Shown here piece by piece: positions 4,943 through 31,927 of a stretch of DNA of 64,000 nucleotides. Below the pieces are notes generated by a model. That model searched no databases. It saw nothing but the letters and a program-made list of their open reading frames with translations, and was not told the DNA's origin. Each line of letters opens with the position of its first letter. Within the stretch, counting starts at the first letter, position 1. Origin of the DNA: Chloroflexota bacterium (lineage in GTDB: Bacteria; Chloroflexota; UBA11872); NCBI GenBank assembly GCA_965262745.1, contig OZ253558.1, positions 1,090,567-1,154,566 on the forward strand, written 5' to 3'. The position numbers and the translations under genes were made by a program.

Positions 4943-7199
4943 CTAGTGGACGTGGTTCGCCGCTGGGAGTCGGGCAACAGCCAACGGCGAGGCCGCCAGC
5001 ACTCCCAGCCCGAGCGCGGTCGTCAGTGCAGAGCCCAACAGCGCCGACCCAGTGGTCGCGAGCGTGCGGACTGCCGCTTCCTCCGGGTTGCGCAGGCGGG
5101 CGAACTCTTCCCGGTAGCGATGAATCACATGGATGGTGTAGTCCACGCCGATCCCGATCGAGAGCGCCGTGATGATTGACGTGATGAGCGAGTAGGGGAT
5201 ACCCAGCAGCGCCATGGTGCCCAGCACACAGATGAGCACGAGCACGATGGGACCCACCGCGACGATCGCCAGCGCCGGCTGGCAAGCGTCACCCAGAAGA
5301 AGACGGCGAGGACGGTAAGGGCCGCCGCGATCGTCGTGGCGACCGCCGCTGTCTGTCGCGCAGTGACTGAGTCGGTGACAGTGATCGAGATGATGCTCTC
5401 CGATGTCGCGGTAATGGCGTCGTCGTCGCCGGCCCAGAGTTCCTCAAGTTCCCGCTGAAGCTCCTTGGTTTGCGTGGGATCGCTTCGGTAGCTCGGGAAC
5501 TGGAGCAGCATGGCGTCGATGCCCTGCGGATTGTTGACCAGCACGCGCGCGACGGCGGGACCCAGGGCTTCAAGCCTGTCGAGGACTGCCTGCATCAGCG
5601 CTGGATCGAGTTGCACCCCTGCCGAGGCTTCCCGGAAGAGCGCCGCAAGTTCTGGGTCGTACTTGTCGCCGGGCTCCCCGCTGTCGGTGGTCCAGTCGCG
5701 CAGCAGCAACTCATACGATGTCTGAATCGGTCCAGCGGCGGTCGACGGGCGCCGGGTTTCGTCCTGAAAGGCGGTTGTGAGGTCGCGCACGTTGAGAAGC
5801 GTGCGGGTCTCCGTAGCCTCGGCCTTGATGAGCACATTGGTCACCTCGCTCGAGCCACCGACGGCCGCTTCGAGGGTGTCCATATCCGCGAGCACGGTTC
5901 CACCTCTGGGGAGGACGTCGCGGATGCTGAATTCCGACTTCAGCCCGGGGGTTGCAATCCCGAGCCCAACGGTGACCGCGAGCACGACGAGGATGTAGGG
6001 GGCCGGCCAGCGGGTCACGCTCCGGCCCAGCAGCCCAGCCAGACGCTCAATGCCCGGCAACGCATTCACGATTGGGTGGGCTGGCTTCAACGTGCCGCGC
6101 GACTCGCGCCGCCGGTCGATGATCGTCCGGCCGGGACCAGCGTCAGCATGACGACTAGGCTCATCCCGACGCCCAGCCCCGCGACGATGCCGAAGTCGCC
6201 AACGATTCCGATCGGGGAGAACAGGCTGGCCAACATACCTACGATGGTGGTGACGGCGGCCAGTAGCAGCGGGACGGCGACGTTACGCAGTCCCAAGCGA
6301 ATGGCCACGAGCACATCCTCACCCTCCGCACGTTGCTCGCGATAGTGCGAGATGGTCTGAATGGCATAGTCCACCGTGAGGCCGATCACGATGATCGGCA
6401 CCATCGTGGTCAGCGAGTTCGGTGGGCCGATCAGACCCAGGGCATTCGGCCCCAGCCAGCCTTCCGCACCGATAATCCAAATGATGGACGTGAGAAGTCC
6501 GCCCAGCGTCAGCCACATGTCTGACAACGTGCGCATGAAGAGCAGCAGCAGCAACGCGATCAGCAGGAAGGCCGCGCCTATCAGCGGCATCATCCCCGTC
6601 TCGGTGGCTACCTTGTTCTCGTCCTCAATCACGATGAACGACACGCTGCTTGCGCGCAGCGGCCCCTCAGCCGCGGCGGCCAGTTCGTTGATCTTGCGCT
6701 CAGCGTCTGCAACTCGCGCGTCGCCGGTGTCGAGCAGGCGAATGTTGGCGATGGCGATCCGCGTGCCGTCCGTATCGGTTCCGGTCATCGCCGCGAGGGC
6801 CGGCTGGATCTCCGGGAGTACGCGAACGGTGTCGATTTGCGCCTGCGTGACCGACTCGAAGCCGTCCACACCGAGCAGGAACTTGACCAGCGACGAAGGC
6901 GCGATGACCGGATCGGCAGGCGCCAGAAGCTCTTGCACGCCCGGGTCGCTGACAACGTCATTGAGGAGGGCGTCCATCTGGGAGAGGCCGGTGGGCGTGA
7001 GCGCTTCCCCTCGAAATAGAAGCGTAACGGCGCTGATCTCACCGTGGTCTCCGAAGAGCTCGTTGGTCTCATCCATCGCTTCGGCAACGGCGCTGCCGTC
7101 GGGCAGCGTGTCCGCGGTCTCCGGGGGCGGCGCGTGGGATAAGGCCAGCAACCTTGCCGCCCTCTGCGAGCCGTGCCACATCCGCGCCCACGGCAACAA
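4943..7199 (-). pseudogene. MMPL/RND-superfamily lipid transporter (HpnN/BstA-like), 5'-truncated and frameshifted
   Basis: Three minus-strand ORF pieces are collinear with one MMPL protein. ORF 6087..7199 holds periplasmic domain 1 and the first TM bundle (GLTVDYAIQTISHYREQ). ORF 5125..6090 holds periplasmic domain 2. ORF 4943..5257 holds the second TM bundle (GVDYTIHVIHRYREE). The frames differ between pieces, and TM1 and the N-terminus are missing. Confidence 0.6.
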
Positions 7200-16437: not shown

Positions 16438-17547
16438 GTGGTCCAGAGCTATGCTGATCCGCATATGGGCGCCGGCTCGGTGCCCGAGGACCCGGCCTAC
16501 CGAACCTCCGCATTGCCCGACCACCGCATCGTTCTCACCTACGACCCTGACGGGACGCTCGTCGACCGCGTCCGCGCCGCACTGCCGCACCGTTCGCTCG
16601 AGATCGTCCGGGCGCTGTCGGCGGACGCCGTGCCCGGCGCGATGCCCGGCACGACGATCTTCTTTGGCAACTACCTCGCCCCGTCGGCGCTGCGACAGGC
16701 GGGCGCGCTGCGCTGGATTCAGACGGTGGGCGCCGGCGTCGACGTGCTGCTGTCCGTCGATCTCGCGGCCACCGACATCGTCGTCACGAATACCAGCGGC
16801 GCCTTCGGCGCCCAGATAGCCGAGCACGCGCTATCGCTCATGTTCGCCCTGGCCCGTCGCCTGCCTGGCGCGCTGCGGTCGCAGGCGGCCCGGCACTACG
16901 CCCCCGAACCCCGCGATGAACTGTTCGAGCTGGCCGGCAAGACTATTGGCATCGTGGGCTTCGGCGACGTCGGCCAGGCGCTGGCGCGGCGCGCGCGTGG
17001 GATTGGCATGCGGGTAATCGCCATGCGGCGACGGCCACGCGGCTCACCTGTAGCCCACCCGTTGATACCGAATCTGCCGCTCGACCCGCTCGCCGGCTCG
17101 GACCCCGACGATCCGTCGGCACTCGCGGACGAGATCGTTGGACCCGACCGCCTGGACGACTTGCTGCGCGACTCCGACGTGGTGGTGAACGCCGCGCCGT
17201 TGACGCCCGCAACGGTGCGCCTCTTCGTCCGGGAACATTTCGCGCGCATGCGGCCGACCGCGTGCTTCATCAACGTGGGCCGCGGTGAGACGGTGGATCA
17301 GGACGCCCTCATCGACGCGCTCCGCGACGGTGTCATCGCCGGCGCCAGCCTGGATGTCACCACCCCCGAGCCGCTGCCGCCCGATTCACCCCTGTGGGCG
17401 CTGCCCAACGTGATTCTCACCGCCCACTACGCCGGCTGGTCCAACACCATGCTCGACCGCATCTACGCGATCTTCACGGACAACCTAGGCCGCTTCGATC
17501 GCGGCGATCCCCTCCGCAACCAAGTGGATGTGCGCGCCGGCTATTGA
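16438..17547 (+). CDS. D-isomer-specific 2-hydroxyacid dehydrogenase-family NAD-binding oxidoreductase
   Basis: It has the NAD-binding motif GKTIGIVGFGDVGQA and the catalytic region FINVGRGETVD...LDVTTPEPLP...LTAHYAGWS. Confidence 0.8.
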   Translation: MVQSYADPHMGAGSVPEDPAYRTSALPDHRIVLTYDPDGTLVDRVRAALPHRSLEIVRALSADAVPGAMPGTTIFFGNYLAPSALRQAGALRWIQTVGAGVDVLLSVDLAATDIVVTNTSGAFGAQIAEHALSLMFALARRLPGALRSQAARHYAPEPRDELFELAGKTIGIVGFGDVGQALARRARGIGMRVIAMRRRPRGSPVAHPLIPNLPLDPLAGSDPDDPSALADEIVGPDRLDDLLRDSDVVVNAAPLTPATVRLFVREHFARMRPTACFINVGRGETVDQDALIDALRDGVIAGASLDVTTPEPLPPDSPLWALPNVILTAHYAGWSNTMLDRIYAIFTDNLGRFDRGDPLRNQVDVRAGY

Positions 17548-17645: not shown

Positions 17646-18068
17646 TCAGTCCTCATCCGCCGTAAGGTCCCTATGTGATATCGGTGGCGTTCCGGGAACG
17701 CAGCTCCACGGTTCCCGGTGAACCTCGCTGCCATCGGCTCGGGTGATATGCCAGCTCGCGCTTTCGGGCTCAATGTCTCTGCAATGCTCAATCTTCGCCG
17801 TCCGAATGCACTTGCCGTCGAGGACATAGCTGGTCGCAGACGCGACCCTATGCATAGTTCCATCTCCCGAAATGCGATCTATGGCGAACATCCCCATCTG
17901 GATGTGTCTGTCCAGTTCGTCATCGAACGGCCGGCCATGTACTGCCTCCGCCTCGGCTACGTCGAACAACAAAACCTGTTCCACAGTGTGACCCTCGACG
18001 ATGACATCGATCCATCGCACAGTTACGCCCCGAATCTGCCCGGTTCGCTCAGTGACCTCGGCGGTCAT
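17646..18068 (-). CDS. Hypothetical protein (140 aa), last gene of the 3-gene cassette
   Basis: The ORF overlaps the upstream ADP-ribosylglycohydrolase gene by 4 nt, which suggests translational coupling. I recognise no family for it. Confidence 0.4.
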
Positions 18069-19132
18069 GACGAGTGGCGCTGGTGCAGCACAGCGGGCAA
18101 GGACTGCCGCGCGTGGTCATAGAGGCTGTCGGCCATTGACGTGATCTCCGTCGCCATCGTGAGCAAGTTTCGCCATTGCACCGGAATTGCTTCGGCTCCA
18201 TAAGTGGCGCCGGCGATCTGCCCGTAGATTGCAGCGGTGGTGTCGGCGTCGTCTCCGAGGTTTGCAGCCAGAAGAGCCCCCTCACGAAAGTCCTCGGACT
18301 TGTGAAAGGCCCAGAGAGCCGCCTCCATCGATTCCACAACGTAGCCCGTTCCTCTGATTGCTGGCGGTTCTCGATGCTTGAACGACCCGTCGGCGACGTC
18401 GGCAATCTTTTCCGCCAAGGGGCTTCTTTCCCAATGACCTTCCGCCGGGCAATAGCGTGCGGACAGGAGCGTCTTTTTGTCGACGCCACGCAACGCCCCG
18501 ACTAGCAGGCCGGAGAAGTAGCGGCAACCGTCAACTGCTTCTTCGGCCCCATGGGTGGTTCGCGAGCTATCAGCGCTTCTTCTGATTGCTTGGGAAACAT
18601 CGCCTGCAAAGTACATCGGCACCGGAGCCAGCCGCATGAGTGACCCATTACCGGCGGAATAAGGGTCGGAAGAGCCCGCAAAGGGTTCGTCGGACTCCAT
18701 GAAGCGTGACAACGCACGTGCGACGGTGTTCCCGATGTCGAAGCATGTGCCAGTGGACGAGAGATAGCCCTCATCACGCCAACGCACATAGCGTCGCATC
18801 TGGTCCATCGGGTCAAACTCGCCCCGCTCGATCAAGCTCGCGGCGAGGCACAGGGCCATGGATGTGTCGTCAGTCCACTGGCCGGGTTCTAAGTTAAACG
18901 GTCCGCCACCGATCATGTCGTCGATTGCCTGGAAAGTTCCGGGCCGATTGAACTCCAGCGTGGTGCCGAGCGCGTCACCCGCCGCTAGACCTAGCAGGCT
19001 TCCGCGAAAACGGTCCCGTGTCGCTGGCTCAGTCAAGGTCAATGATGAGGCGGCAATGGTCGCTCGGGCCCCAGTCGTCAGGACTGTTGAGGGCGTGCAC
19101 CGACACGCGGTCGGCGATGTTCTCCGTGGCAA
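18065..19132 (-). CDS. ADP-ribosylglycohydrolase (ARH/DraG-family)
   Basis: The ARH N-terminal motif is [22 protein letters not shown], and the family sequence continues in the rest of the ORF. The real start is probably downstream of 19132. Confidence 0.75.
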
Positions 19133-19826
19133 AGACGTAGTCGGCTTGCGCCCAGGCCTGCGCGGGCGTCGCGCCGATGGATTGGAAAGTCACCACATCG
19201 CCGCGGTCGCTGCGGCGCCCCTCAGGCATGACCTCGCGAAAGCCCAGCGCCTGCATCCGGTCGAAGGCTGTCTGGAAATGCAGGGCCTCGCGTTCGTTCC
19301 AGATCGTTGTCGGATGGGCACTCCAGCCTGGGTAGATGACCCAATCGCCAGCGGCAATGACGCGGCTCTGGCGGCCGACCAAGCGCGCCAGATCAGAGAT
19401 CAGCCGGTGAACCGAGCCAATGCACTCTCGGCGACTCGGCGAGCCCGACTCGCGCGTAAAGGCGTTGTACGCGGGGGCCATGGAGACGACGATAAGCGAC
19501 TCGTCTCCGTCGATCGGGTTCACTATCGCGGCTCCGAGCGTGCCCCACTCGCTCGTGTAGAAGTCGTGGCTGAAGTGATCGCCCATCGGCAGAGTCGCGA
19601 TGAAGCTGACGGAGACCCGGTTGGAAAGCCTGGCCACGACTGAGGGATACCCCAGGGAGGCGTTGTGGTGGTCGGGCCAAAGCCTGTGGTCGACTTCGAC
19701 GTCGTGACGGAGCTCGTCGGGCAGGGGTGACGCCTCCTGCAGCAGCGCAATATCGACACCGGCCATCCGGAGCAGCTCGTTCCATGATTTGCGCGAGTGC
19801 GCCATGTTCCAGCAAACGATCTTCAT
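19029..19826 (-). CDS. Endonuclease/exonuclease/phosphatase (EEP)-family protein
   Basis: The EEP start block is [15 protein letters not shown]...DIALLQEA, and the C-terminus has DH motifs ([12 protein letters not shown]). Confidence 0.7.
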
Positions 19827-20179
19827 GGGGTTCTCCCGGCAGGCAGTTCAGCATTCGTTCGACCATGGGTCCGGCCCGAGAATCCATCGTTTCCGGGCGG
19901 CCCAAGAGCCAGGCGATTGGCGTCTCGCACCTGACCCACGACGAACTCGCTGTGTGGATTGATGATGCCTACATCGTGTCATTCCTGGTTCGGACGGTTT
20001 CTCTCGCGGTACTGGAGTTCGTAGTCGAAATGCTCGATCCGAGCCATCCTGGGTTGCCCTCCCGGCAGGCGACTTGGGAGGATCACCCCGCTCCGTCGTC
20101 GCCCACGAGCCTCAATATTCGTTCGAGCGGGATCTCTGCCTGGATCTGTTCCGGGAGCTACTCACAAGTCCGATAGATC

Positions 20180-20385
20180 GCACTCACCAGGCTGTCGCCA
20201 CGCCCGAACCGCTGCCGCCGGATTCCCCCCTGTGGGCGCTGCCAAACGTGATGCTCACCGCCCACTACGCCGACTGGTCCGACACCATGCTCGACCGCAT
20301 CTACGCAATCTTCACCGACAACCTCCGCCGCTTTGATCGCGGCGAGCCCCTCCGCAACCAGCTCGACGTGCGGGCTGGATATTAG
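20180..20385 (+). pseudogene. Duplicated 3' fragment (about 65 codons) of the 2-hydroxyacid dehydrogenase gene
   Basis: Nt 20180..20385 are about 88% identical to 17345..17547. The remnant encodes PEPLPPDSPLWALPNVMLTAHYADWSDTMLDRIYAIFTDNLRRFDRGEPLRNQLDVRAGY, against the same tail in the intact gene, and ends at the equivalent stop. Confidence 0.85.
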
Positions 20386-20676: not shown

Positions 20677-21330
20677 TTAGTAGATACGCGCGAGGTTCCG
20701 CACCGCGTCCCGAAACACTTGACAGCTTTTCGATCGGTTCCTATCCACGTCCAGGAAAGGCGCTATTTGCTCAGCCCACTCAGCCTTGGCCCGCCCCATC
20801 TCGGGGTACCCCGCTCTAAGGAGCCGCGCCGATCCACCTTGGTATATGGCGTCCGCCAAAACCTCCCACGTTCCGCATATACTGTCCTGAGAGTATCTGT
20901 TCAGAACTGAATTCTTTGCGTTGGGATAGGCAGCCTTTATAGCGTCGCGATCGCCCAGTAGCCACGCCTCAATTTCCTCGATGGCGATCCTAAATACCGT
21001 TTGTGGACGCGGGTAGCATGCCTGGAGCACATTGAGCAGTTGTTGCTTGAATGACAGGCAATCTCTATCGTCCAAGTCCACAATCACCAGTACTGCCTGG
21101 CAAGATCCGAGACTCCTACCATATCCGCGCAAGAGGCGAGGCAGGTGATCCAGTAGCAGTCGCTTCGTTGGATCCGGCACACCGTACAGATTCCTCGGTA
21201 TACGACCAATACCTCGGTAGGAATGAATCCTCCACGAATGCATGGTATTATTTTGACCTAGAATCTTTTCCAGAATAGCCTTGACCGTGATACTTCCAGA
21301 TCTATCCTCAACCAATATTTCGAAATGCAC
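20677..21330 (-). CDS. DUF4276-like protein (predicted TOPRIM/OLD-like nuclease partner)
   Basis: The N-terminus reads HFEILVEDRSGSITVKAILEKILG, followed by an acidic VIVDLDD block typical of DUF4276. The likely GTG start at 21330 lies 4 nt after the ATPase stop. GC is lower than the flanks. Confidence 0.6.
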   Translation of the reverse strand: MHFEILVEDRSGSITVKAILEKILGQNNTMHSWRIHSYRGIGRIPRNLYGVPDPTKRLLLDHLPRLLRGYGRSLGSCQAVLVIVDLDDRDCLSFKQQLLNVLQACYPRPQTVFRIAIEEIEAWLLGDRDAIKAAYPNAKNSVLNRYSQDSICGTWEVLADAIYQGGSARLLRAGYPEMGRAKAEWAEQIAPFLDVDRNRSKSCQVFRDAVRNLARIY

Positions 21331-21334
21331 TTGT

Positions 21335-22618
21335 CTACTGCTGATCGAAGTAGTCGCTGTACCAGAGACCGCCAAGCGGCAGACCTTCTTCGACCAGAGC
21401 TCGGACAATATGATCGTTGCTCGCCCTAGTAATGGTCGCGAAGCCGTCCGCCGATTTCTCCAAGATCCACGTTTCCTCGGGTGTCAGAGCATCGACGAAG
21501 TAGGGTTGGTGGGTCGTGACAAATATCTGGGGCGCGTTCCGGCGCCCCGAGGCGTGGCGGCGAAACTCATCGGCCAGCAATTCCAATAGTTTGTGATAGA
21601 GACCGTTTTCCGGCTCCTCGATGCATATGAACGGCGGCGGCTGCTGATCCTCCAGCATCAGCAGATACGCAAAGACTTTGAGTGTGCCGTCGGACACTTG
21701 CTGCGCGTAGAACGGGTCAGCGAAGCCCTTATCGTTGAAGCGCAGCAGCAAGCGACCGTCAGGACTGCGTTCCGTATCGATGCGGTCGATGCCGGGAACT
21801 CTCCTGGCAATCCGTCCAAGGATGCGTTCAAACCTATCGCGGTGCTCCCGCTCCATGAATTGCACGACGTTGCCCAGATTGTCTCCGTGGATATTCAGAT
21901 GCCGCTGGGGTCCAGCCATTGGCAACCCGCGCGCGGCGTCCGGCGTAAAGTAGCTCAGATACCAGCCTTCGATAAACTGACGAAAAGCCGCGATTCTCGG
22001 ATGTTGCTTCAGTGCCCCCAGGGTTGCAATACCCAGCTTGCGCTTGTCCTGAAGTTCAATAATCTCCCGTCCCGCGCCCTCCTCGTTTTCTAACCCTCTC
22101 AGTAGCGCTGAAAGGTCCACTTCCAGTCGGCCATCTTCATCGACCTGCAAACCCTGCACCTCGCCTGCCCAGGCCATTCCCTTGCCCTCGTTCAGCATCA
22201 AGAACGAAAATGGCCAGCCGCGTCTCTGTCCTCGACGACGCTGGCGCAGGCGTTCGCGTGAAACATAGGGGCGGCCCGAATCGTCCTTGTCGATCGCAAA
22301 TTCGTATGTGATCGGTCGAGCCTTCGAATCCTGCCGGTAATAGACCTCGAACTCGATGGGGGTGTCGCTACCCTGTGATCGTATGCGGTCGAACCCGCCG
22401 CGCCCACGCACGTCGCAGGCCTCTTCGACACCGAGCTTCAGGCAATCCGCCAGGAATCCGAAAGCATCGAATAGGGAGCTCTTGCCAACCCCGTTCTTTC
22501 CAATCACCGCCGTCAGCGGCTCTAACGGCTGGGCGGCAGGCGTGTTCCACAGCTTGCCTAGGGTGATGTCGTGCAACACCCGGTAGTTCCTGATGCCGAT
22601 GCCTTCGATACGGGCCAT
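21335..22618 (-). CDS. AAA_21/ABC-type ATPase (OLD/AbiL/PARIS-AriA-like ATPase component)
   Basis: There is a Walker A (GKNGVGKSSLFDAF) near the N-terminus, and a distal signature/Walker B region (FICIEEPENGLYHKLL...VTTHQP). Confidence 0.75.
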   Translation of the reverse strand: MARIEGIGIRNYRVLHDITLGKLWNTPAAQPLEPLTAVIGKNGVGKSSLFDAFGFLADCLKLGVEEACDVRGRGGFDRIRSQGSDTPIEFEVYYRQDSKARPITYEFAIDKDDSGRPYVSRERLRQRRRGQRRGWPFSFLMLNEGKGMAWAGEVQGLQVDEDGRLEVDLSALLRGLENEEGAGREIIELQDKRKLGIATLGALKQHPRIAAFRQFIEGWYLSYFTPDAARGLPMAGPQRHLNIHGDNLGNVVQFMEREHRDRFERILGRIARRVPGIDRIDTERSPDGRLLLRFNDKGFADPFYAQQVSDGTLKVFAYLLMLEDQQPPPFICIEEPENGLYHKLLELLADEFRRHASGRRNAPQIFVTTHQPYFVDALTPEETWILEKSADGFATITRASNDHIVRALVEEGLPLGGLWYSDYFDQQ

Positions 22619-22788: not shown

Positions 22789-22835
22789 TGGTGCCCAGGA
22801 CGGGACTGGAACCCGCACAGCCCGGAGGCCACCAG
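22789..22835 (-). other. tRNA 3'-end remnant (variable arm, T-arm, acceptor 3' strand and CCA), a probable island att-site duplicate
   Basis: The reverse complement (tggcctccgggctgtgcgggttccagtcccgtcctgggcacca) matches the 3' 45 nt of the intact tRNA-Leu at 35720..35803 with 3 mismatches. The 5' part does not fold as a tRNA. Confidence 0.6.
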
Positions 22836-23031
22836 ACCCTAAACCGAGGTCAACCCACCGCCAGGCACTGCCGCAGCGCCTTGACCATGGCCGGTCGCTG
22901 CTCACGGCTCCTCGTGCCGACCGGATTGGCGATCGCCCGCATCACGACCTGTTGATCGGACGCTGAGAAGCGTAATCCCCGGCGCTGCTCCGCGGATGCC
23001 TGATACCCGCCACAGCCTCTGTCGCCCTGCA

Positions 23032-26000
23032 CTACGCGGGTGTGAGCGGGCTCTCAGCCTCGTCGTGGGCCATTTCAAACAGCCGCGCCAGGGCGTTGGC
23101 CAGGTGCATTTGGCGGGGCGTGCGGCAGCGCACGGCGAGCAAGCCCGGACTGGCCACGACTACCGCCAGGCACTTGGCGCGGCTGGTGGCGACGTTCAAG
23201 CGGTTGAGGCTGTAGAGAAACTCCATGCCACGCGGCGCCTCGTCGGCAGAGCTTGTGGCCATCGAGTAGATGGAAATCGGGGCTTCCTGGCCTTGGAACT
23301 TATCGACAGTGCCGATTCGCAACTCCCGGAGCTCAGGTCGGGATGCAAGCTCCCCGATCTGGCGGTTGTAGGGCGTGATGATGAGCACGTCTTGAGCGGT
23401 CAGCGCGTGGGTCGCGCCTTCGGCGTCAGTCCATGAGGCGCGCGACCGGAGCAACCGGTCGACGCTCTCGGCAATCGCCGCCGCCTCTTCCTCGGAGTCG
23501 CTGATGCGGCGCTCGTGCGACACGGCCACGAAGCGCAGTCCTGTCCCGAGGAACGGGGACGAGCCGGCCAGGTCCAAGTTCTCGCGGCCGGGATGCGCGC
23601 GCAGGTTGTCCTCGTAGAAGACTTCCGAGGTGAACTCACAGATGCTGGGATGCAGGCGCCACGTGCCGTCGAGAAACAGTCCGAAGTCCTTGGGCATCAC
23701 TCGTGCGTCATCGAGTACGTGCGCCAGCACCGAACGATCCGCGCCTGGCGGATGCACGCCCTGCAGCGGCTGATCCAGCTGCTGCGGGTCGCCCAGCAGC
23801 AACAGGCTCTTGGCGCAACGTGCCGAGGCCAAGGCGTCGGCCAGCGACATCTGCCCGGCCTCGTCGATGCAGAGCACGTCCACCAAGCCCTCCGCGTCGT
23901 CACGCGCCCAGAGCCAGGAAGTTCCGCCCACCACGTCAAGCGTTCCTCTGGCCAGGGCCATGCACGCATCCTCGGTTTTCGCGAGGGGTACCGCGTCCGC
24001 GAATTCGGGCTCGGCTGACCGGTAGCGGGTCCGCTGGCCGATCCTGACCGGGACGCCGCGCTCGCGGGCCACCCGCGCCGTCTTCTCCAGCAACTCACCG
24101 ATCACCTTGTGGCTGTTGGCCGTCACGCCCACGCGCTTACCCGCCTCCACGAGGTCCACGATCATCTCGGCACCAACCGTGCTCTTGCCCGAGCCGGGCG
24201 GTCCCTGGATCGCCAGGTAGCTCTCGTCCAGCATCTGCACCAGCCGCCGGGCCGCATCCTGCGCATCCTCGCCGTCCGCCGTCAGCGGTGATCCGTCGGT
24301 CTGTCCAACCCGTGGCGGACAGCGCATCAACAGGTCTCGGGCCGCCTGGTACGGCCCGGGCGCGTCGATCCCGTGCTCAATCACCCACGTCGCCAGATTC
24401 CGAAGGCTCGACGGTTTTGGCCCTGGATTGACATATTCGTAGGCGATCAGTGATGTCGGCGCCGGTGCTGCCCGGTTGGACCCAACCTTCAGGTCGATCA
24501 CGCCGTCTCGATCGTTTACCGCGACCACTTCGCCGATCGAATTTCCGTGCTGATCGCGTGGCCGGTCGCCGACTTCGATCTTGTGGTCCTGTGGCGGGAA
24601 CCGAAAGCTGTAGATCTTGGAACGCGACTTGGGCCTGGGATCGGCCCGACTGCGCACGTAGCTGAGCTGGCCCAGCGCGTCCGTCTCGCCGACTCGCTCT
24701 TCGTCGGTGAGTTCGTCCTTCAGGTGGAAATAGCGCCACCAGAACGCCTTATCCTCGCGCCGGTGCCAGTCGAGCAGCTGCGCCAGGAGCCACCGCCCGC
24801 GTTGGCTCGGATCTTCGAGCGACCTGCCGTCCGTCAAGTCCTCGGGCAGGCCCGCTGTCAGCTGGGCCACGAGTTCCTGCACCTCCCGCTGGGCCTCCGT
24901 GTCCTCGGTCTCTTCGGGAGGCTTGACCGTAGGACGCGGCGGGGCTTCGGCGCCGACTTCGTTCACCAGCGCGGCGCGCTGGACTTCCAGCCACTCGCGC
25001 AGATAGCAGGTGGAAAGACAGTCGTCGCGGTTATAGGCCCTGATCTTCTCCAGCAGGCCGTCCCGGTCGGTCCCGTCCTCGGGTTCGAGCCAGTTCTCGA
25101 ACTCCACGATGCTCTCGCCCGCATCGCGTAGATCGATTTCCCGCTTGAATCCGTAGAGCGGCTCCAGCCGCTTGATGGAGTAGCTCTCCACCGAAGCGCG
25201 AACGCCCTGCCGCACGACGCGGTAGAGGTCCACGAACACACTGCCCCGCAGCAGCTGGTCCACCTCTGACTCACGCGTGGCGTAGCGCCCCGCCAGCCGC
25301 TTCATTGCCCCTGTCTCGTAGGGCGCGTAGTGATAGACGTGCATGTCCGGGTGGCCAGTCCGGCGCTCCATGATGAGGTCGATACAGTCCTCGAACGCCT
25401 TACGCTCGGCCGCCGGCGACACGGTGCCGTCCGCGATCGACCAGAACGCGTGAAACCTGGGGTCGCCCGCGGCGTCCGTCTGTCCCGGCTCGATCACGCC
25501 GAAGAGGTAGTCGATGCCGTCGATCTCGTCCGAGCCATAGAACGGATCGCCCTCCAGGTCCAGGAACAGGTCACCGGGCGACGGCTCCGGCAACAGCCAG
25601 AGACCGCGGTCCGGAACAACCACGTCCTCGCGGTCGCGTTCGGGCGGGATGCGCTCCGAGATCACCTGGCCTTCGCCGCGCACCTGGATCGCCGCCTGGG
25701 CCTGCACCCGGGCCAGCGAAACCGGGCTGACGCCGTCCAGCTGTTCCGGCAGCGGCCGCGACGGATCGGCCAGCCCACCCCGTGTGGTCACGTCAATGGC
25801 GTGCAGGGCGCGTCGCTGGCGGGACGTCAGGTTGGCCACCAACGCCAGATCGTCTTCCCGACGCCACTGGGCTCGGCATTCCTGGTTCCACCTGCAGAAG
25901 TCGCAGTGCTGCATGGGTTCCGGCTTGGTCGAGATTGGAAACGCCGATTCGGAGTCGTCGAGCAGCGTCTCGAACTGCCGCGCGACCAGGCGGTAGTAGG

Positions 26001-26577
26001 CCCCGTAGTCGGCGACCCGAAGGCTCGCGGTCCTGCGCGCGACGCCGCCCAGCACCAGATGCATCCGTTCCGGCGGCCGCCCCTGCATTCTCCCGAGCAG
26101 GTCTGAATACATGCTGATCTGCAAGACGGCGGGGGCCGTGGGTTGCCGCGCCAGCTTGGTGTCCCAGACTTCATAGCTCCATGCCCCGAGGTCGCTGGGT
26201 TTCTCGACGCGGCGCAGGAAGTCCGCGTACCCCAGCCGCCGGTCGCCGAGCAGCACGGCCTGGTAGATCACGTCAACGCCATCTCGCATCGCCTGCAGCG
26301 TGGCGGCGTGCTCGGATTCAACCACTCGGGACGGAGACACGGTGTCGGGCGGCCGGATTTCCCTGATTCCCAGGTTCTCGGCGTCCAGCGATTCCAGGAA
26401 GCGCGCCTCATACTCCCGACCGCGCCGCGCCAAACGGTCGAGCACTGGGTCGTCACGAAACGGCCGTTTGAGGTCATGCAGAACCGCGGCGCGCTCCAGG
26501 TTGGCCAGGTGCCGGCACTCCAGGAACGCGACCAGATCGGTGGCGGAGTAGACCAGACGCCTATCAATCAGTTGCAT
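23032..26577 (-). CDS. RecB-like nuclease + RNaseH-like domain + SF1 (Upf1/Dna2-like) helicase fusion protein (TM0106-family N-terminal region)
   Basis: The 1181-aa ORF has an N-terminal RecB/Cas4-like region with a Cys cluster (HCDFCRWNQEC). It has a C-terminal Walker A (GPPGSGKST), a Walker B (CIDEAGQ) and SF1 motifs (GDPQQL, VATSRAK). Confidence 0.7.
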   Translation of the reverse strand: MQLIDRRLVYSATDLVAFLECRHLANLERAAVLHDLKRPFRDDPVLDRLARRGREYEARFLESLDAENLGIREIRPPDTVSPSRVVESEHAATLQAMRDGVDVIYQAVLLGDRRLGYADFLRRVEKPSDLGAWSYEVWDTKLARQPTAPAVLQISMYSDLLGRMQGRPPERMHLVLGGVARRTASLRVADYGAYYRLVARQFETLLDDSESAFPISTKPEPMQHCDFCRWNQECRAQWRREDDLALVANLTSRQRRALHAIDVTTRGGLADPSRPLPEQLDGVSPVSLARVQAQAAIQVRGEGQVISERIPPERDREDVVVPDRGLWLLPEPSPGDLFLDLEGDPFYGSDEIDGIDYLFGVIEPGQTDAAGDPRFHAFWSIADGTVSPAAERKAFEDCIDLIMERRTGHPDMHVYHYAPYETGAMKRLAGRYATRESEVDQLLRGSVFVDLYRVVRQGVRASVESYSIKRLEPLYGFKREIDLRDAGESIVEFENWLEPEDGTDRDGLLEKIRAYNRDDCLSTCYLREWLEVQRAALVNEVGAEAPPRPTVKPPEETEDTEAQREVQELVAQLTAGLPEDLTDGRSLEDPSQRGRWLLAQLLDWHRREDKAFWWRYFHLKDELTDEERVGETDALGQLSYVRSRADPRPKSRSKIYSFRFPPQDHKIEVGDRPRDQHGNSIGEVVAVNDRDGVIDLKVGSNRAAPAPTSLIAYEYVNPGPKPSSLRNLATWVIEHGIDAPGPYQAARDLLMRCPPRVGQTDGSPLTADGEDAQDAARRLVQMLDESYLAIQGPPGSGKSTVGAEMIVDLVEAGKRVGVTANSHKVIGELLEKTARVARERGVPVRIGQRTRYRSAEPEFADAVPLAKTEDACMALARGTLDVVGGTSWLWARDDAEGLVDVLCIDEAGQMSLADALASARCAKSLLLLGDPQQLDQPLQGVHPPGADRSVLAHVLDDARVMPKDFGLFLDGTWRLHPSICEFTSEVFYEDNLRAHPGRENLDLAGSSPFLGTGLRFVAVSHERRISDSEEEAAAIAESVDRLLRSRASWTDAEGATHALTAQDVLIITPYNRQIGELASRPELRELRIGTVDKFQGQEAPISIYSMATSSADEAPRGMEFLYSLNRLNVATSRAKCLAVVVASPGLLAVRCRTPRQMHLANALARLFEMAHDEAESPLTPA

Positions 26578-26723: not shown

Positions 26724-27452
26724 TCACAGCGGCAGCAGGTGCCCCGCTTCGCGCAGCCGCTGACGCCGCTGTTGCGCGTCCGGCATCGCTCTAACCACCA
26801 GCCCCCAGAAGTCCGGCCCGTGGTTCTTTATTGACAGGTGCGCCAGCTCGTGCACCACGATGTACTCGACAAGGGCAGGCTCCAACATCATCGCCCGCCA
26901 GTTGAAGCGCAGCGTGCCGTCCGGCGCGCAGCTCCCCCAGCGCCGGCGTTGATCGCGGATCAGCACGCGCGGCCAGTCGCCGTGACCCAGGCGCGGCCAC
27001 CAGCGCTCCACGCTAGTTGGCAGGCGGTCTGCCGCCCGCCTCCGATACCAGGCCACGAGGGCGCGCTGGGCACTGCGGGTTCGCTCACTATCGGACGCCC
27101 CCGTTGGCACCGTGACGCGGAACCGCCAGTGATCGAAGCGCACGCTCACCGACCTGACGTCGGCGTGCTCGACCAGCAAACGCACGTTGCGGCCCAGGTA
27201 AGGCAACGTCTCACCGCTCACAAAGCGCTTCGGCGCGGCGGCCAGCGTCTCCGCGGTGCTGCGGCGCATGATCCAGGCCGCCCGCTTGCGCACGATCCCC
27301 CGCAACTCCTCGGCGGGCGTCGAAACAGGCGCGGCGACCTGGACCCCGCCCCCGTCCACGGTGATCTGCACCGTCTTCCTGCGCCGCTGACTGCGCTGCA
27401 CCTCGAACTCGATCGTGCTCTCGCCGAAACGGACGGATCCCCGCTCACTCAC
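26724..27452 (-). CDS. DUF45/YgjP-like M48-type zinc metallohydrolase
   Basis: The HExxH motif (VVHELAHL) sits in a YgjP-like context. The ORF overlaps the hsdR stop by 4 nt. Confidence 0.65.
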   Translation of the reverse strand: MSERGSVRFGESTIEFEVQRSQRRRKTVQITVDGGGVQVAAPVSTPAEELRGIVRKRAAWIMRRSTAETLAAAPKRFVSGETLPYLGRNVRLLVEHADVRSVSVRFDHWRFRVTVPTGASDSERTRSAQRALVAWYRRRAADRLPTSVERWWPRLGHGDWPRVLIRDQRRRWGSCAPDGTLRFNWRAMMLEPALVEYIVVHELAHLSIKNHGPDFWGLVVRAMPDAQQRRQRLREAGHLLPL

Positions 27453-30400
27453 GATCCCGACCTCTGACGCGCCACGTCCACGATCTGGTGCGCCAGCTCG
27501 TCCAAGCGCTCTTCCGTGAAGTCCCCCGTGCCTCGCAGCTCCCGCTTGATATCCCGGCGCATCTCGCGCTGCACTTCAAGGTTCGACTGCCAATCGATCA
27601 CGTCGCTGTGACGCTGGATGGCGCGTTCGATCGCGCGCGCCACGGCCGTCGTCTGCTCGTCCAGGGCAGTGCGATAGGAGCCTGAAGCTTCGCCCGCGTC
27701 CACGCTCGGAGAGGCCAGCAACTCGTAGACCGCAAACGACACTGGCGAGAGCCCGTGCTGCGCGGCGATGTCCGCTTCGCTTTGGACCTGCTTGCGCAAT
27801 TCGGCCAGTCGCCGGCAGGCCTCGGCAGCGTCGATCAGCCGCTGACGCAGTTCCTGGATGATGCGGTCCAATTGCTCCGAGAGCTTCTCATAGAACGCCG
27901 GGTTTTCCGCCAGTCGCTCGTTGATCTGGGCGCGGACCGCGTGCTCCATCAGCGACGCCCGCGCTTCGTCGTGCGGCAGGTCGGCAATCTTCGCCTCGAA
28001 GTCCTGATCCAGGATCGAGAGCGGCTGCATCAGGCTGCGCACCTTGGCGTCGATGCGCTCGTCGATCAGGCCCTTCACCTTCGCGCCAATATCGGTCCAA
28101 TCCAACTCCGCGTCCTCGCGCAGGAACTGCGCCCGCACATAGGCGCGAATCGCCGTCAGCCGCGCCAACCGCTGTACGTAGGGCTCGGCGCCCGGGTCCG
28201 GCAGGTAGCGGTCCATCAGGCGGGCGAACTGACGGTAGTCCGCGCTGAATCGCTCGAACAGGTCGGCCTTGAACGCGTCCTCCGAGGCGGCATCCGGCGC
28301 AAACAGCGCCGCGCAGTCCCACACGTTGCTCAGGTCGCGGCCCTTGAAGTGCGACTCCGCCTGCACCGCCGCGGCCTCGATCGCCGGCCCGGGATCCTCC
28401 TCCAGCTCGCGCATGGAGTCCTGCACGTCTGGCCAGTCGAACGTCGCCAGCGCCGCCTCCAGGTCCCGCGAGACCCCGTGATAGTCGATCACCAGGCCGT
28501 GCCGCTTCTCCGTGTCCACGTTGTCCGGCCGGTGCGCGAAGCGCCGGTTCACGCGGGCAATCGCCTGCAGCAGGCCGTGTTCCCGCAGCCCACGGTCCAG
28601 GTAGAGCACCTGCTCCACCGGCGCGTCAAACCCGGTCAGCAGCATGTCCACCACCACCAGGATCTGCGGCTCGCCCTCGGGGTCCACGAACGCGCCGGTG
28701 ATCTGCTCCTGGTTGAGATCGCGCGCCGCGGCGAACTCCGGGCCGTCGTTGTTATCGGTGGTGATGATCGGATAGGCGCTCAGCCCAAAGGTCTTCAGGC
28801 GCTCCGCGTAGCGCAGCGCCGCCGCCCGGCTGGGCGCCACCACCTGCGCCTTGAACCCGTTCGGCTGCACCTTGGCCTTGAAGTGCTGGGCAATATCCAG
28901 CGCGATCATCTCGATGCGACGCTCCGCCTCCGCCACCGTCTCCTTGTTCGCGTAGCGCCGCCGGATGCGCGCCTGCGTCTCCTCGGACTCCTGGCCGAAC
29001 ATCTCCTCGAACAGCGTGTCCAGCGTCTCCGGCCCCTCGATGTGCAGTTCCGGCAGCCGCGCCTCGTAGAGGATCGGCACGGTGGCGCCGTCGGCGACCG
29101 ACTGCGGAATCGTGTAGGAGTCGATCAGCGAACCGAATCGCCGCATCGTGCTGTGACCGAAGTCCTTGTCGATGGGCGTGCCCGTAAAGCCGATCAGCGC
29201 TGCGTTGGGAAGGGCCTTGGACATGCGCGCGCCCAGCAATCCGTATTGCGTGCGGTGCGCCTCGTCCACCATCACCACCACCTGCTCCGATGGGTTCAGC
29301 ACATCCAGCCGGCCCTTGGGAGTCGTCAGCGCGTCCTCGAACTTCTGGATTGTCGTCATCACCGTGCGGCCGCCGCCGCTTCTCAGCAGCCGGCGCAGGT
29401 TGCGGGCGTTGGTCGCCTGCTCAGGCGCCGGAAAGCCGCAGCGTTGGAAGGTGCCGCTGATCTGCCGGTCCAACTGCGTGCGGTCGGTCACCACCACGAT
29501 CGTCGGGTTGTGCAGCCGCGGCTCGCGCCGCAGCTTGGTGGCCAGCCACAGCATCGTCAGCGACTTGCCCGAGCCCTGCGTGTGCCACACCACCCCGCCG
29601 CGCTCCTCGGGACGGCGGCCCGTCAACAATCGCTCCAGCGCCGCTCGCACCGCGCGGTACTGCTGATAGCGCGGCAGCTTCTTCACCAGCTTGCCGGCCT
29701 GCGGCTCGTAGACCACGTAGTCGCGCAGGATGTCCAGTAGCGTGGCCGGCGCCAGCAGCCCCACGATCAGCCGCGCCTGGCCCTCTGGTTCCACCCCGAA
29801 GCGCTGCCGCGCCTCGGCTTCCGAATAGGGCAGCACCGACTTCCATTCCACGTAGGCGTTCTCGGGCGCGCCCAGCGTCGCGTACGCCGCCGCGGCTCCG
29901 CAGTGCGCCACGCACAGCAGGTTGGTGTGGAACAGCTCCGGCGCGCCCGTCCCGTGCCACTCGGGCCCCGCTTCTTGGTAGCGACGCAGCTGGCGCACCG
30001 CCTGCGTCCGCCACACGTCCAGCAGCGACGGCGATTTCGCCTCCATCACCACCAGCGGCACGCCGTTCACGAACAACACCAGGTCCGGCTTCACCACCCG
30101 CTGGTCGTCTTCCTGGTTGCGCCGCTCGTTACCCCGACGCACCCGGAACTGCGTCGTCACCACGAACTCGTTCAGCCCGCCCTCCGGATGATCGAAGTCG
30201 AAGAAGCGCGCAATCCGGCTCTGGCGACCACTGGGCGTGTCCACCCCCAGCGGCATGCCGTAGATCAGGTGCTCGTGCACGCGCTGATTGCGGGCCATGC
30301 CGCTGAAGTCGCTGCGCTCCAGATCAGCCACCACCCAGTCCGCCTGCGACTCGGTCATCCAGGCGTTCAACCGCAGCAACGCCCGCCGCAACCGCCCCTT

Positions 30401-30538
30401 TAGCAACACCTCCCGCTCGTCCCCGCGCTCCGCCGCCAGCGTTTCGCGTGGGACGTACGTCCAGCCCAGTCTTTCAAGCAGCTCCCGCGCCGGGTTCTCG
30501 GCGTGATGGAGCTCATTGAGCCTGGCGGGAGTGGTCAT
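27449..30538 (-). CDS. hsdR: Type I restriction enzyme R subunit (HsdR)
   Basis: The 1029-aa ORF has helicase motifs (DEAHRTQ, FTGTP) in HsdR-type architecture. It lies in an operon with hsdS and hsdM. Confidence 0.9.
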   Translation of the reverse strand: MTTPARLNELHHAENPARELLERLGWTYVPRETLAAERGDEREVLLKGRLRRALLRLNAWMTESQADWVVADLERSDFSGMARNQRVHEHLIYGMPLGVDTPSGRQSRIARFFDFDHPEGGLNEFVVTTQFRVRRGNERRNQEDDQRVVKPDLVLFVNGVPLVVMEAKSPSLLDVWRTQAVRQLRRYQEAGPEWHGTGAPELFHTNLLCVAHCGAAAAYATLGAPENAYVEWKSVLPYSEAEARQRFGVEPEGQARLIVGLLAPATLLDILRDYVVYEPQAGKLVKKLPRYQQYRAVRAALERLLTGRRPEERGGVVWHTQGSGKSLTMLWLATKLRREPRLHNPTIVVVTDRTQLDRQISGTFQRCGFPAPEQATNARNLRRLLRSGGGRTVMTTIQKFEDALTTPKGRLDVLNPSEQVVVMVDEAHRTQYGLLGARMSKALPNAALIGFTGTPIDKDFGHSTMRRFGSLIDSYTIPQSVADGATVPILYEARLPELHIEGPETLDTLFEEMFGQESEETQARIRRRYANKETVAEAERRIEMIALDIAQHFKAKVQPNGFKAQVVAPSRAAALRYAERLKTFGLSAYPIITTDNNDGPEFAAARDLNQEQITGAFVDPEGEPQILVVVDMLLTGFDAPVEQVLYLDRGLREHGLLQAIARVNRRFAHRPDNVDTEKRHGLVIDYHGVSRDLEAALATFDWPDVQDSMRELEEDPGPAIEAAAVQAESHFKGRDLSNVWDCAALFAPDAASEDAFKADLFERFSADYRQFARLMDRYLPDPGAEPYVQRLARLTAIRAYVRAQFLREDAELDWTDIGAKVKGLIDERIDAKVRSLMQPLSILDQDFEAKIADLPHDEARASLMEHAVRAQINERLAENPAFYEKLSEQLDRIIQELRQRLIDAAEACRRLAELRKQVQSEADIAAQHGLSPVSFAVYELLASPSVDAGEASGSYRTALDEQTTAVARAIERAIQRHSDVIDWQSNLEVQREMRRDIKRELRGTGDFTEERLDELAHQIVDVARQRSGS

Positions 30539-30906
30539 GGGCTCTCCCCGCGGGAGTCCTCCAACATCTTTCGCAGCTGCGGCAGCATGCTTGGGATCGC
30601 ATCTTGAATTATCGACCAGATGATGACGTCACTGATGTGCAAATAGGAGTGCGCCAAGCGATTGCGGACCCCGATGATTGCGCGCCAGGGAATCATGGGA
30701 TATGCCTCACGCGCGTCGGATGGGATATGCGTTGCCGCCTCACCGATCAGTTGGATGTTGCGCAACGTGGCGTCGTGGATGAGACCGTCGGCTGCGAAGG
30801 CGTCCTGATCCAGTCCATCCGTATATGACAGGACTTTCTCGGCGAACTCGATCATGTCCTGAACGTAAAGATTCCAGCGTCGACCTTCTTCATGGGTCTC
30901 ACACAT
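30535..30906 (-). CDS. HepT-like (DUF86) toxin of a HepT/MNT toxin-antitoxin pair
   Basis: The RX4HXY-like motif is present (RNRLAHSY). The start at 30906 overlaps the MNT stop by 8 nt. Confidence 0.65.
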   Translation of the reverse strand: MCETHEEGRRWNLYVQDMIEFAEKVLSYTDGLDQDAFAADGLIHDATLRNIQLIGEAATHIPSDAREAYPMIPWRAIIGVRNRLAHSYLHISDVIIWSIIQDAIPSMLPQLRKMLEDSRGESP

Positions 30907-31924: not shown

Positions 31925-31927
31925 GCG

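Follow-up and report, generated by a model that had tools for sequence, protein, structure and literature searches.

A Tri1/DraG-like ADP-ribosylglycohydrolase linked to a new small-protein family in Dehalococcoidia, with an EEP-fold protein as a facultative partner

Organization of the locus

The 64,000-nucleotide stretch of the high-GC, metagenome-assembled contig OZ253558.1 that was the subject of our analysis (positions 1,090,567 to 1,154,566 of the forward strand, Chloroflexota bacterium assembly GCA_965262745.1; referred to as the window) contains three minus-strand genes of the same orientation, which encode, from upstream to downstream, a protein of the EEP family, an ADP-ribosylglycohydrolase (ARH), and a 140 aa protein (here, the small protein, encoded by the small gene). 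Results of our analysis indicate that the ARH gene and the small gene are truly linked, while the EEP gene is a facultative neighbor, and that the three-gene operon of the window arose recently and locally from a system that is itself older.

The description of these genes in the initial annotation as tightly packed, co-oriented, and overlapping by 4 nt in the case of the last two is consistent with the open reading frames (ORFs) found at the same coordinates (Table 1). The ATG of the small gene and the stop codon of the ARH gene share four nucleotides (ATGA) in the sequence TCATGACC. The start of the ARH gene could be refined: we reassigned it from the TTG at 19132, which begins the longest ORF, to the TTG at 19036, as the 323 aa product obtained in this way is matched by homologs of 315-323 aa with a matching N-terminus, MSEPTTRDRFRG. 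With this start, the ARH gene overlaps the EEP stop codon (19029-19031) by 8 nt. All three genes are real, since each of them has hundreds of conserved homologs and the ratio of non-synonymous to synonymous substitution rates (dN/dS) of the small and ARH genes is 0.10-0.20. About 200 nt of the spacer upstream of EEP, those nearest to the gene, are kept in two related loci (L002 and L069). A promoter scan of this spacer did not find a sigma-70 consensus, and the promoter/terminator scan and the Rfam search of the 17-24 kb region were uninformative.

Table 1. Features of the locus and their positions in the window
Feature	Position	Strand	Description
Direct-repeat copy A	17349..17545	+	3' end of the intact 2-hydroxyacid dehydrogenase gene (16438-17547)
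Small gene	17646..18068	-	140 aa; new domain of ~135 residues
ARH gene	18065..19036	-	323 aa from TTG 19036; Tri1/DraG-like ADP-ribosyl(arginine) hydrolase
EEP stop/ARH start junction	19026..19042	-	Site of a deletion of 315 nt between two TGAGCC microhomologies
EEP gene	19029..19826	-	265 aa; EEP-fold, ExoIII/APE1/TRAS1-endonuclease-like; facultative partner
Non-coding spacer 5' of EEP, presumed promoter region	19827..20186	-	No convincing ORF
Direct-repeat copy B	20187..20383	+	Displaced dehydrogenase 3' fragment; last 66 codons, no 5' part
Fusion of TM0106-type RecB-like nuclease and superfamily 1 (SF1) helicase (hel)	23032..26577	-	1181 aa; Pfam, NCBIfam

Proteins identical to the products of the three genes are encoded on ENA ERZ25068833 ctg57609. 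The related loci (L numbers; single proteins are given P numbers) come nearly all from metagenome-assembled genomes (MAGs) of Dehalococcoidia. Several of the compared assemblies are low-coverage long-read MAGs with frameshifts, and two MAGs labeled as Actinomycetota may owe this assignment to errors in binning. Linkage was counted in 49 genomes with the small domain, each of which represents a species. Neighborhood statistics come from 49 + 26 loci, for which we called the ORFs ourselves and ran tblastn, and a filter on GC content at third codon positions (GC3) was used in the clustering of ORFs to keep antisense ORFs apart. A scan of JGI metagenomes provided seven further loci only, and no relatives of the small protein were found in IMG/VR viral contigs.

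The ADP-ribosylglycohydrolase

The assignment of the middle gene to Tri1/DraG-like hydrolases, proposed initially, is borne out by the match of its product to the Pfam family ADP_ribosyl_GH (PF03747, E 4e-81) and by its closest relatives of solved structure, which are Thermus TTHA1358 (2cwc, 3e-73) and Tri1 (6dre, 3e-68), an immunity protein of type VI secretion systems (T6SS), followed by DraG. The scores of the relevant NCBIfam models are lower than their cutoffs, namely, 321.6 bits vs. the equivalog cutoff of 490 for Tri1 (NF041672) and 154.7 bits vs. 337 for DraG (TIGR02662). The alignment with NF041672 spans only positions 66-360 of the 361 positions of this profile. Because the match begins at position 66, the N-terminal extension of about 65 residues by which Tri1 plugs its toxin is missing from the ARH of the window, which starts 9 residues ahead of the conserved DRFRG. 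The metal motifs TDDT (vicinal-Asp) and GDDADTT are intact, and the dN/dS of the ARH gene is 0.16 at dS above 1. The closeness of this protein to Tri1 and DraG and the intactness of its metal motifs suggest that it cleaves the ADP-ribosyl-arginine bond.

The small protein

No match to the small protein was found in Pfam even at E of 10, or in NCBIfam, PADLOC, PHROGs, and the sequences of PDB, which confirms the initial view that this protein has no recognizable family. We identified 240 homologs, and the 120 matches listed are all at least 69% identical to it, none of them with a Pfam domain; the identity of its tblastn relatives in other loci goes down to 61%. A profile search of 1.84 billion representative proteins returned 79 entries only, mostly fragments of members of the same family, and found no remote relatives with which the alignment could be deepened. 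As judged from these comparisons, the small protein represents a compact, almost entirely Dehalococcoidia family without relatives in Pfam, NCBIfam, PDB, or PHROGs.

The alignment of the small domain contains 30 invariant positions, including H27, D49, D53, D64, R65, C87, R89, K92, C96, C123, and H132. Structure prediction, which had been proposed as a check, yielded an AlphaFold2 (AF2) model of a mean pLDDT of 63.6 (30 homologs), in which only the N-terminal ~95 residues are modeled with some confidence, in the topology b-b-b-a-a-b-b, and the Cys/His tail is left unmodeled. Foldseek searches of PDB and BFVD with this model gave nothing at E of 0.001 or better; the top matches, all of low probability, were kinase N-lobes, small heat-shock proteins, and DUF98.

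The dN/dS of the small gene is 0.10 in its orphan copies and 0.20 in the copies linked to ARH, with dS above 1, that is, near saturation. The high amino acid identity within the family is thus a sign of constraint and not of recency, since purifying selection is accompanied by nearly saturated synonymous sites. The orphan copies, which are intact and have no ARH gene within reach, occur in 26 of the 49 loci, often among metabolic genes, such as those of a major facilitator superfamily (MFS) transporter (9 loci), a thiamine pyrophosphate (TPP) enzyme (7 loci), and a short-chain dehydrogenase/reductase (SDR).

Two types of additional sequence can follow the small domain at its C-terminal side, neither of them with a Pfam match. 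One is a domain of ~160 residues, designated by us as X, which occurs singly or in tandem and has the motif YRxYNLWYS..PW..W.MSYR, and the other is an extension of ~90 residues (RYVTKPNGQ.V.IDD.GW). The X domain and the extension were found across P0241-P0245, L003, L008, L014, L046, and L058-L061, as well as P0085, P0109, P0118, and L028-L045.

The ARH-small unit and its phosphatase

The ARH gene is adjacent or fused to the small gene in 23 of the 49 loci. This number comprises 14 loci with adjacent genes, three in which the adjacent ARH gene is partial, and six in which both parts form a single ORF (in-frame fusions in L030, L041, L043, L044, L045, and L048). Wherever the two genes are adjacent (17/49), ARH lies immediately upstream of the small gene. 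Further linked loci are L057-L061, L068-L070, and L073-L074. The fusion proteins, of 517-766 aa (517 aa in L045 and 727 aa in L041), have the architecture (DSP-PTPase)-ARH-small-(C-terminal extension), and in P0246 the order of the fused parts is permuted to small-PTPase-ARH. Additionally, the pairwise distances of the ARH and of the small proteins correlate with each other (r = 0.76). The adjacency, the fusions, and the correlated divergence demonstrate that ARH and the small gene form a real unit, although one whose linkage has been repeatedly gained and lost, since linked and orphan states are interspersed across the clustering of small proteins.

Of the 23 linked loci, 12 have a phosphatase of the DSP-PTPase type (PTP-SAK, Tc-R-P; PF22784/PF22785) that is fused to ARH or encoded directly upstream of it, while none of the 26 unlinked loci has one. 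Intact PTPase-ARH-small arrangements are exemplified by L059 and L013. The phosphatase accompanies ARH also in L062 and in the metagenomic loci L057-L061, where the PTPase, ARH, and small(+X) genes are separate, overlap by 4 nt, and are located among insertion sequence (IS) elements. Decayed remnants of the PTPase gene can be recognized 5' of ARH in L068 (HSWIGVGQTGT, with an in-frame stop) and in L069 (a C-terminal remnant). The conserved unit is (DSP-PTPase)-ARH-small, not EEP-ARH-small. The neighborhood survey that had been suggested initially thus supports the pairing of ARH with the small gene, but its usual third partner is the DSP-PTPase and not EEP, whose gene is close to the small gene in 3 of the 49 loci only.

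In four loci (L040, L041, L043, and L048, at about 5100-6480), a gene of an XRE-type helix-turn-helix (HTH) protein and a gene of a conserved 322 aa protein without matches in Pfam, NCBIfam, or PDB lie immediately 5' of ARH-small, which is present there usually as a PTPase-ARH-small fusion; in L041 and L043, the stop/start gap is 1-2 nt. Possibly, these two genes represent a further component of the system. Another variant is encoded in L062 (5001-11482), where a PTPase-ARH fusion of 493 aa (ARH part 83% identical) has no small domain and adjoins genes of QueC-like, TGT-like, UvrD, and PD-(D/E)XK proteins, in an arrangement reminiscent of clusters for 7-deazaguanine (Dpd-type) DNA modification.

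Neighborhoods of the ARH-small unit

Families that recur near the linked loci include those of helicases/nucleases and XRE-type HTH proteins (5 proteins), and genes of UvrD and PD-(D/E)XK proteins lie near other members of the family. Neither ADP-ribosyltransferase (ART) nor SIR2 families are among the 25 recurrent Pfam families listed for the 118 neighbors of the 23 linked loci, in which a singleton could be missed, and neither was found in the trio of the window or in its flanks. The ARH-small pair of L068 is 93% identical at the DNA level to that of the window but is placed in an unrelated, defense-type context, next to the genes of REase-ARP (PF22558, E 6.5e-22) and of a DEAD/ResIII helicase, with GmrSD. 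This context and the GC3 of ARH and the small gene, which is far below that of the flanks (0.68 and 0.66, respectively, vs. 0.82-0.89), provide independent evidence that the ARH-small unit moves.

In all loci closely related to that of the window, the hel gene remains in the vicinity. In L005, L020, and L070, it directly precedes ARH-small in the order hel-ARH-small-dehydrogenase, where the genes are roughly 35-50 nt apart, and it may share a transcript with the pair. Its product joins a TM0106-type RecB-like nuclease to an Upf1/IGHMBP2-like SF1 helicase and has a weak similarity to Mokosh MkoA/MkoC in PADLOC.

The EEP gene and its junction with ARH

The EEP product is under the threshold of the Pfam family Exo_endo_phos (E 6e-4, 20 bits vs. 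24.5), and its more distant homologs carry PF03372. Its AF2 model (pLDDT 91.3) has as the top Foldseek matches in PDB the TRAS1 EN, Mth0212, APE1, and ExoIII (E to 5e-11, TM 0.61-0.66, probability 1.0), and the catalytic residues N7, E31, D161, and D256-H257 are kept. By its predicted fold, a four-layer alpha/beta sandwich with the set of N, E, D, and D-H residues, the protein fits the EEP superfamily, as had been proposed from the sequence. It resembles ExoIII/APE1 nucleases and endonuclease domains of non-LTR retrotransposons in this fold and in most catalytic residues, but it is only 14-20% identical to them, represents a separate, mostly unannotated family of about 220 members, and is not accompanied by a reverse transcriptase. 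The motif GDLN of the wider EEP family reads GDWV in the clade of the window, with the Asn of GDxN replaced by Val.

The association of EEP with the small gene involves two EEP clades and three arrangements, namely, that of the window, L002, L038, and L069, that of L063, and that of a remnant in L050. In L063, the small gene is followed by an EEP gene of the second clade, 40% identical to that of the window, whose start overlaps the stop of the small gene by 1 nt (TAATG), and there is no ARH; in L050, a remnant of a second-clade EEP gene lies after the remnants of ARH and the small gene. Of the 7 distinct contexts sampled for the EEP clade of the window, 5 contain EEP, hel, and the small gene together (e.g., L038, L067, and L069). 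EEP genes without the small gene or ARH adjoin DUF1156/DUF499 genes (L052-L055) or are located among housekeeping genes (L064-L066), and in L056, where the small gene is absent, EEP lies upstream of hel. The GC3 of EEP (0.82) is host-like. Whether EEP belongs to the ARH-small system appears to us to be evenly balanced.

The flanks of L069 are 97% identical to those of the window, but its EEP and ARH genes are separated by 315 nt (about 315-330 nt if L002 is included), in which a decayed C-terminal remnant of a DSP-PTPase gene can be recognized. In the window, the deletion of this region took out the PTPase remnant together with the ATG of ARH and left only TTG codons, inside the 3' end of EEP. 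As the 97%-identical L069 does not have the deletion, the tight packing of EEP and ARH must be very recent. The sequence of the junction suggests that ARH of the window depends on a TTG inside the 3' end of EEP and would be translated by coupling to EEP.

Direct repeats and the history of the segment

The trio is bracketed by a direct repeat of 197 nt, the copies of which are 88% identical and lie 2838 nt apart (start to start). Copies A and B differ at 26 positions in 199 nt, 18 of them being third codon positions (15 synonymous vs. 9 non-synonymous codons). Since the differences are mostly at third codon positions, the copies must have diverged within functional genes of different lineages. 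The homology of copy B to the dehydrogenase gene begins abruptly at codon ~304. A protein similarity 5' of this fragment (ORF 20074-20385) was considered but is not upheld by DNA, where the identity upstream of codon ~304 is 39%. A shorter, 130-nt version of copy B is located at the same place in L002 and L069. The terminal ~70 nt of the repeat exist as two alleles, which are swapped between the intact and the fragment copies in the window relative to L002, and this swap indicates conversion between the repeats.

The hel-dehydrogenase interval, with the dehydrogenase gene in convergent orientation, differs in content between relatives. It is empty in L056, contains only the small gene in L004 and L067, and holds ARH-small in L005, L020, and L070, where both EEP and the repeat are missing. 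In the window, L002, and L069, it contains dehydrogenase fragment-EEP-ARH-small. In L038 (1059-7008), the EEP gene is duplicated, and the interval reads EEP-hel-EEP-hel 3' fragment (180 nt)-ARH-small. The downstream flank of the dehydrogenase fragment of the window resembles the native hel-dehydrogenase junction of L056.

The three genes are the only ones between the repeats, and no integrase or transposase is encoded there. A site-specific integrative element was rejected as an explanation, since there is no recombinase, though the flanking repeats include the 3' end of a target gene. In the simplest reading, DNA of a diverged relative with the dehydrogenase 3' end, small, ARH, and EEP genes would have recombined into a hel-dehydrogenase chromosome with one end anchored in the dehydrogenase gene, and the 3' end of the resident dehydrogenase gene would have been left as the displaced fragment. 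One-sided homology-facilitated recombination and Campbell-type integration of a circle are the candidate routes. L038 has a matching signature, a 3' fragment of hel next to EEP, and together with the window it raises the question whether EEP-bearing DNA may insert preferentially beside displaced 3' ends of genes. We considered also EEP as a self-mobilizing endonuclease, but its position next to displaced 3' fragments in the window and L038 is the whole support for this idea.

With respect to mobility, the initial proposal of a mobile operon whose genes arrived together holds in part. The segment is bounded by repeats and is located in a variable, defense-rich region, and a joint arrival is conceivable at best for the lineage of the window, L002, and L069. 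However, EEP is not a part of the conserved unit, ARH-small lies between the same flanks without EEP and the repeat in three relatives and elsewhere in L068, and the GC3 of EEP is host-like while that of ARH and the small gene is not.

Comparison with known systems

In relatives, the locus largely qualifies as a system of the ARG-centric type, i.e., one of the conflict systems with ARG and a rhodanese-phosphatase ('ARP') that were described by Iyer, Burroughs, Anantharaman & Aravind 2022 (PMC9503650, section 3.8). These systems are predicted to reverse ADP-ribosylation imposed by viral enzymes. They contain a phosphatase in ~55% and a Nudix-HTH or WYL-HTH repressor in ~42% of cases, and the displacement of one phosphoesterase fold by another is their stated feature (PMC9503650). 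The loci studied here share with them an ARH with catalytic motifs and without a coupled ART, a DSP-PTPase (R-P superfamily) that in relatives is fused or adjacent in about half of the linked loci, and a changing set of accessory nucleases and helicases, among them the REase-ARP of L068. Modules are gained and lost between close relatives, and phosphoesterase folds replace one another. In the window copy, which has no PTPase, the phosphatase slot is occupied by EEP, in a putative role. In contrast to the described systems, our loci are from Chloroflexota/Dehalococcoidia, a phylum not listed in PMC9503650, the phosphoesterase partner can be an EEP protein, which is not mentioned there, and the constant third partner is a new domain, which by sequence is not vWA, SseB, TY-Chap1-3, or ARPP. 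The b-b-b-a-a-b-b model of this domain is compatible with a TY-chaperone-like sheet, although the Foldseek matches are insignificant (the type III secretion chaperone InvB is 29th, with a probability of 0.20).

Other systems are similar in single components. Tri1, the immunity protein of the T6SS ADP-ribosyltransferase effector Tre1 (6DRE), is close to our ARH in sequence, and reversal of arginine mono-ADP-ribosylation is expected of both, but the ARH of the window does not reach the equivalog cutoff, lacks the N-terminal plug, and is partnered by the small domain, and neither a Tre1-like gene nor a T6SS context was found in the flanks of the window or in related loci. With the DraT/DraG pair it shares the fold of the DraG family and the dimetal motifs, but not the DraT gene or a nif context, and its TIGR02662 score is below the cutoff. 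DarHTG, a validated anti-phage system of a helicase, DarT, and the ARH-fold protein DarG3 (PMC13069673), also has a helicase gene beside a gene of an ARH-fold protein and a third, small gene in a defense-island setting. However, the third gene of our loci encodes 135 aa without a DUF4433/ART match and is often fused to ARH or alone, and instead of a UvrD-like helicase without the 2B domain, these loci have an Upf1-like one of SF1 that is fused to a RecB-like nuclease.

A possible eraser module and alternative explanations

We favor, at slightly less than an even chance, the reading in which the core of the locus is a stand-alone eraser system of the ARG-centric type, composed of ARH and the small domain. 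This agrees best with one of the initial alternatives, that of ADP-ribose processing. The core of the window would descend from an ancestral three-part module of DSP-PTPase, ARH, and the small domain, widespread in Dehalococcoidia. Since it has no ADP-ribosyltransferase of its own, the system most likely strips ADP-ribose put on host macromolecules by foreign enzymes, which might be phage ARTs or toxins of competitors. In such a pathway, ARH would take ADP-ribose off arginine, and the phosphoesterase partner would handle a product that carries phosphate, or else a variant of the adduct, with DSP-PTPase in this role in most lineages and possibly EEP in the window and in L063. The small domain would be tethered to the enzymes by translational coupling or by fusion, in the orders PTP-ARH-small and small-PTP-ARH. 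Its strong constraint and many invariant polar and Cys/His residues argue that it is most likely a metal-stabilized recognition or co-catalytic module and not a toxin. The module of the window is a partly eroded one, in which the PTPase was lost and the end of EEP was joined to the start of ARH by the 315-nt deletion. Recombination with a diverged relative would have brought the 2.8-kb segment to the 3' end of the dehydrogenase gene or rearranged it there.

Several points weigh against this interpretation. The ARG-centric systems themselves are only a computational prediction, and neither Nudix-HTH nor WYL-HTH regulators are among the recurrent neighbor families of the ARH-small loci. For the small domain, modeled at a pLDDT of 63.6 only, no similarity to the chaperone or ARPP families could be detected, and its slow evolution is unlike that of typical components of an arms race and unlike evolution within ARG-centric systems, where it is rapid. 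As the small gene is present without ARH in 26 of the 49 loci, often among metabolic genes, its product must have a role that is independent of an adjacent ARH. Finally, ARH of the window, which has lost its ATG, may be poorly expressed.

The same orphan copies, often in semi-syntenic metabolic contexts and with the lowest dN/dS (0.10), would be accounted for if the small protein were a housekeeping-like client of reversible modification in Dehalococcoidia, beside which ARH, PTPase, and EEP are encoded as erasers, similarly to draTG located near nifH in some diazotrophs. The attachment of three different eraser hydrolases to one small-protein hub fits this explanation as well, and dS above 1 speaks for old constrained genes over recent sweeps. 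We nevertheless regard it as unlikely. For an enzyme, covalent fusion with the substrate on which it acts would be unusual in as many as at least seven architectures, no writer enzyme (ART or kinase) recurs nearby, and the presence of ARH-small in the defense-type context of L068 and among IS elements in L057-L061 resembles that of a mobile accessory module. Somewhat less probable still is a role in nucleic-acid clean-up, in which ARH would strip ADP-ribose from DNA or RNA (modified by DarT-like enzymes or phage DNA ARTs, or at ADP-ribosylated phosphate ends), EEP and DSP-PTPase would trim ends that are blocked or phosphorylated, the small Cys/His domain would bind nucleic acid, and hel would take part. 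The fold matches of EEP, all of which are DNA AP-endonucleases, 3'-phosphodiesterases, or a retrotransposon endonuclease, the constant proximity of hel and its position directly 5' of ARH-small in three loci, the UvrD/PD-(D/E)XK and REase-ARP genes near other members, and the validated DarHTG system (PMC13069673), where a helicase cooperates with an ARH-fold antitoxin, are in line with such a role, but ARH is nearest to protein-arginine-specific enzymes (Tri1 and DraG), EEP is missing from most loci, and the binding of nucleic acid by the small domain is conjectural.

A toxin-antitoxin or effector-immunity function, also considered in the initial annotation, seems to us the least probable of these explanations and is disfavored by our results. 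The small protein would then be a toxin, possibly a minimal ART, ARH would be its antidote, and hel-ARH-small would form a DarHTG-like set. The antidote-first order and the 4-nt overlap are typical of toxin-antitoxin operons, and the Tri1-like ARH, the defense-island context, and the precedent of DarHTG (PMC13069673) point in the same direction. On the other hand, the small domain is in frame with ARH in P0246 and in at least six genomes (L030, L041, L043, L044, L045, and L048), it is intact and under strong purifying selection in the orphan copies, and ARH is cleanly absent from the same locus in L004 and L067. The small protein has no match to DarT/DUF4433 or another ART family in Pfam up to E of 10, its 135 residues are short for an ART fold, and its predicted topology is not ART-like, though the model is weak; if it is an ART at all, it would have to be a very divergent one. 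Nor does an ART recur in the neighborhoods. A different question, compatible with the eraser reading of ARH-small, is whether EEP is a bystander island gene pushed against ARH by a chance deletion, to which we assign nearly, although not quite, an equal chance. Its occurrence without the small gene or ARH in L052-L055 and L064-L066 and upstream of hel in L056, its rarity near the small gene, its host-like GC3, and the origin of the 8-nt overlap in a deletion not found in L069 and L002 agree with a bystander. Yet the small gene is adjoined by EEP genes of two clades that share only 40% identity, with the 1-nt overlap in L063, EEP, hel, and the small gene occur together in most contexts sampled, and phosphoesterase displacement is a stated ARG-centric feature (PMC9503650).

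A broader interpretation, which we consider rather improbable, is that the domain of 135 residues serves as a hub, new and probably metal-binding (Cys/His), for three unrelated erasers, Tri1-like ARH, DSP-PTPase, and ExoIII-like EEP, in a Chloroflexota-specific de-modification pathway. If so, the pathway could provide a new mode of immunity against ADP-ribosylating toxins and phage ARTs, with a recognition domain that directs the erasers, or alternatively it could be an endogenous switch of reversible ADP-ribosylation/phosphorylation centered on the small protein.

The reversal of phage- or competitor-imposed ADP-ribosylation by host systems is so far a prediction, for which the small domain offers a directly testable lead. 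If this domain is a target-recognition or co-catalytic part of the ARG-centric-type eraser, the way in which an orphan ARH locates its substrates would be explained, and the biology of ADP-ribosylation would gain a new fold or function. The natural series of fusions (PTPase-ARH-small, ARH-small, and small-PTPase-ARH) defines a minimal conserved three-domain machine. The copy of the window, partly eroded and recently rearranged, is not its best representative, but the locus is a clear example of gene insertion by means of a displaced 3' gene end, without an integrase.

Neighboring genes

The defense context of the window comprises HEC-01, the nuclease-helicase, a type I restriction-modification (R-M) system, and HepT. 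Genes of an AAA_21 ATPase and a DUF4276 protein (20677-22618, minus strand) are together a PADLOC candidate for HEC-01 (E 1.6e-190 and 1.1e-88). They are situated between the downstream region of hel and the displaced dehydrogenase fragment. The pair is missing in L002, and in the 97%-identical L069 it is replaced by an unrelated gene of 443 aa with no Pfam match, and thus this spot appears to be a site of cassette exchange. The AAA_21 gene is one intact ORF of 427 aa in the window (21335-22618), while in L001, the ENA contig (5450-6734), it is split by a frameshift into parts of 300 and 120 aa.

The type I R-M genes (26724-35746, minus strand) encode HsdR (27449-30538), HsdS (32713-34011), and HsdM (34094-35746), with YgjP (26724-27452). 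They are interrupted by a low-GC insert that encodes a HepT-like RNase (30535-31095), Hypoth_Ymh (31367-31924), and a 262 aa protein without a family (31928-32716).

A tRNA-Leu-like 3' fragment, from the anticodon stem to CCA (22789-22850, minus strand), repeats the 3' half of the intact tRNA-Leu(GAG) gene (35718-35803, minus strand). These direct repeats are 12.9 kb apart and have an identical core of 23 nt, and between them lie the genes of the nuclease-helicase, YgjP, the type I R-M system, HepT, and Hypoth_Ymh. The fragment looks like an att remnant of a tRNA-targeting island, of which no integrase was seen, and copies of it are located near the homologous loci of L002, L056, L068, and L069.

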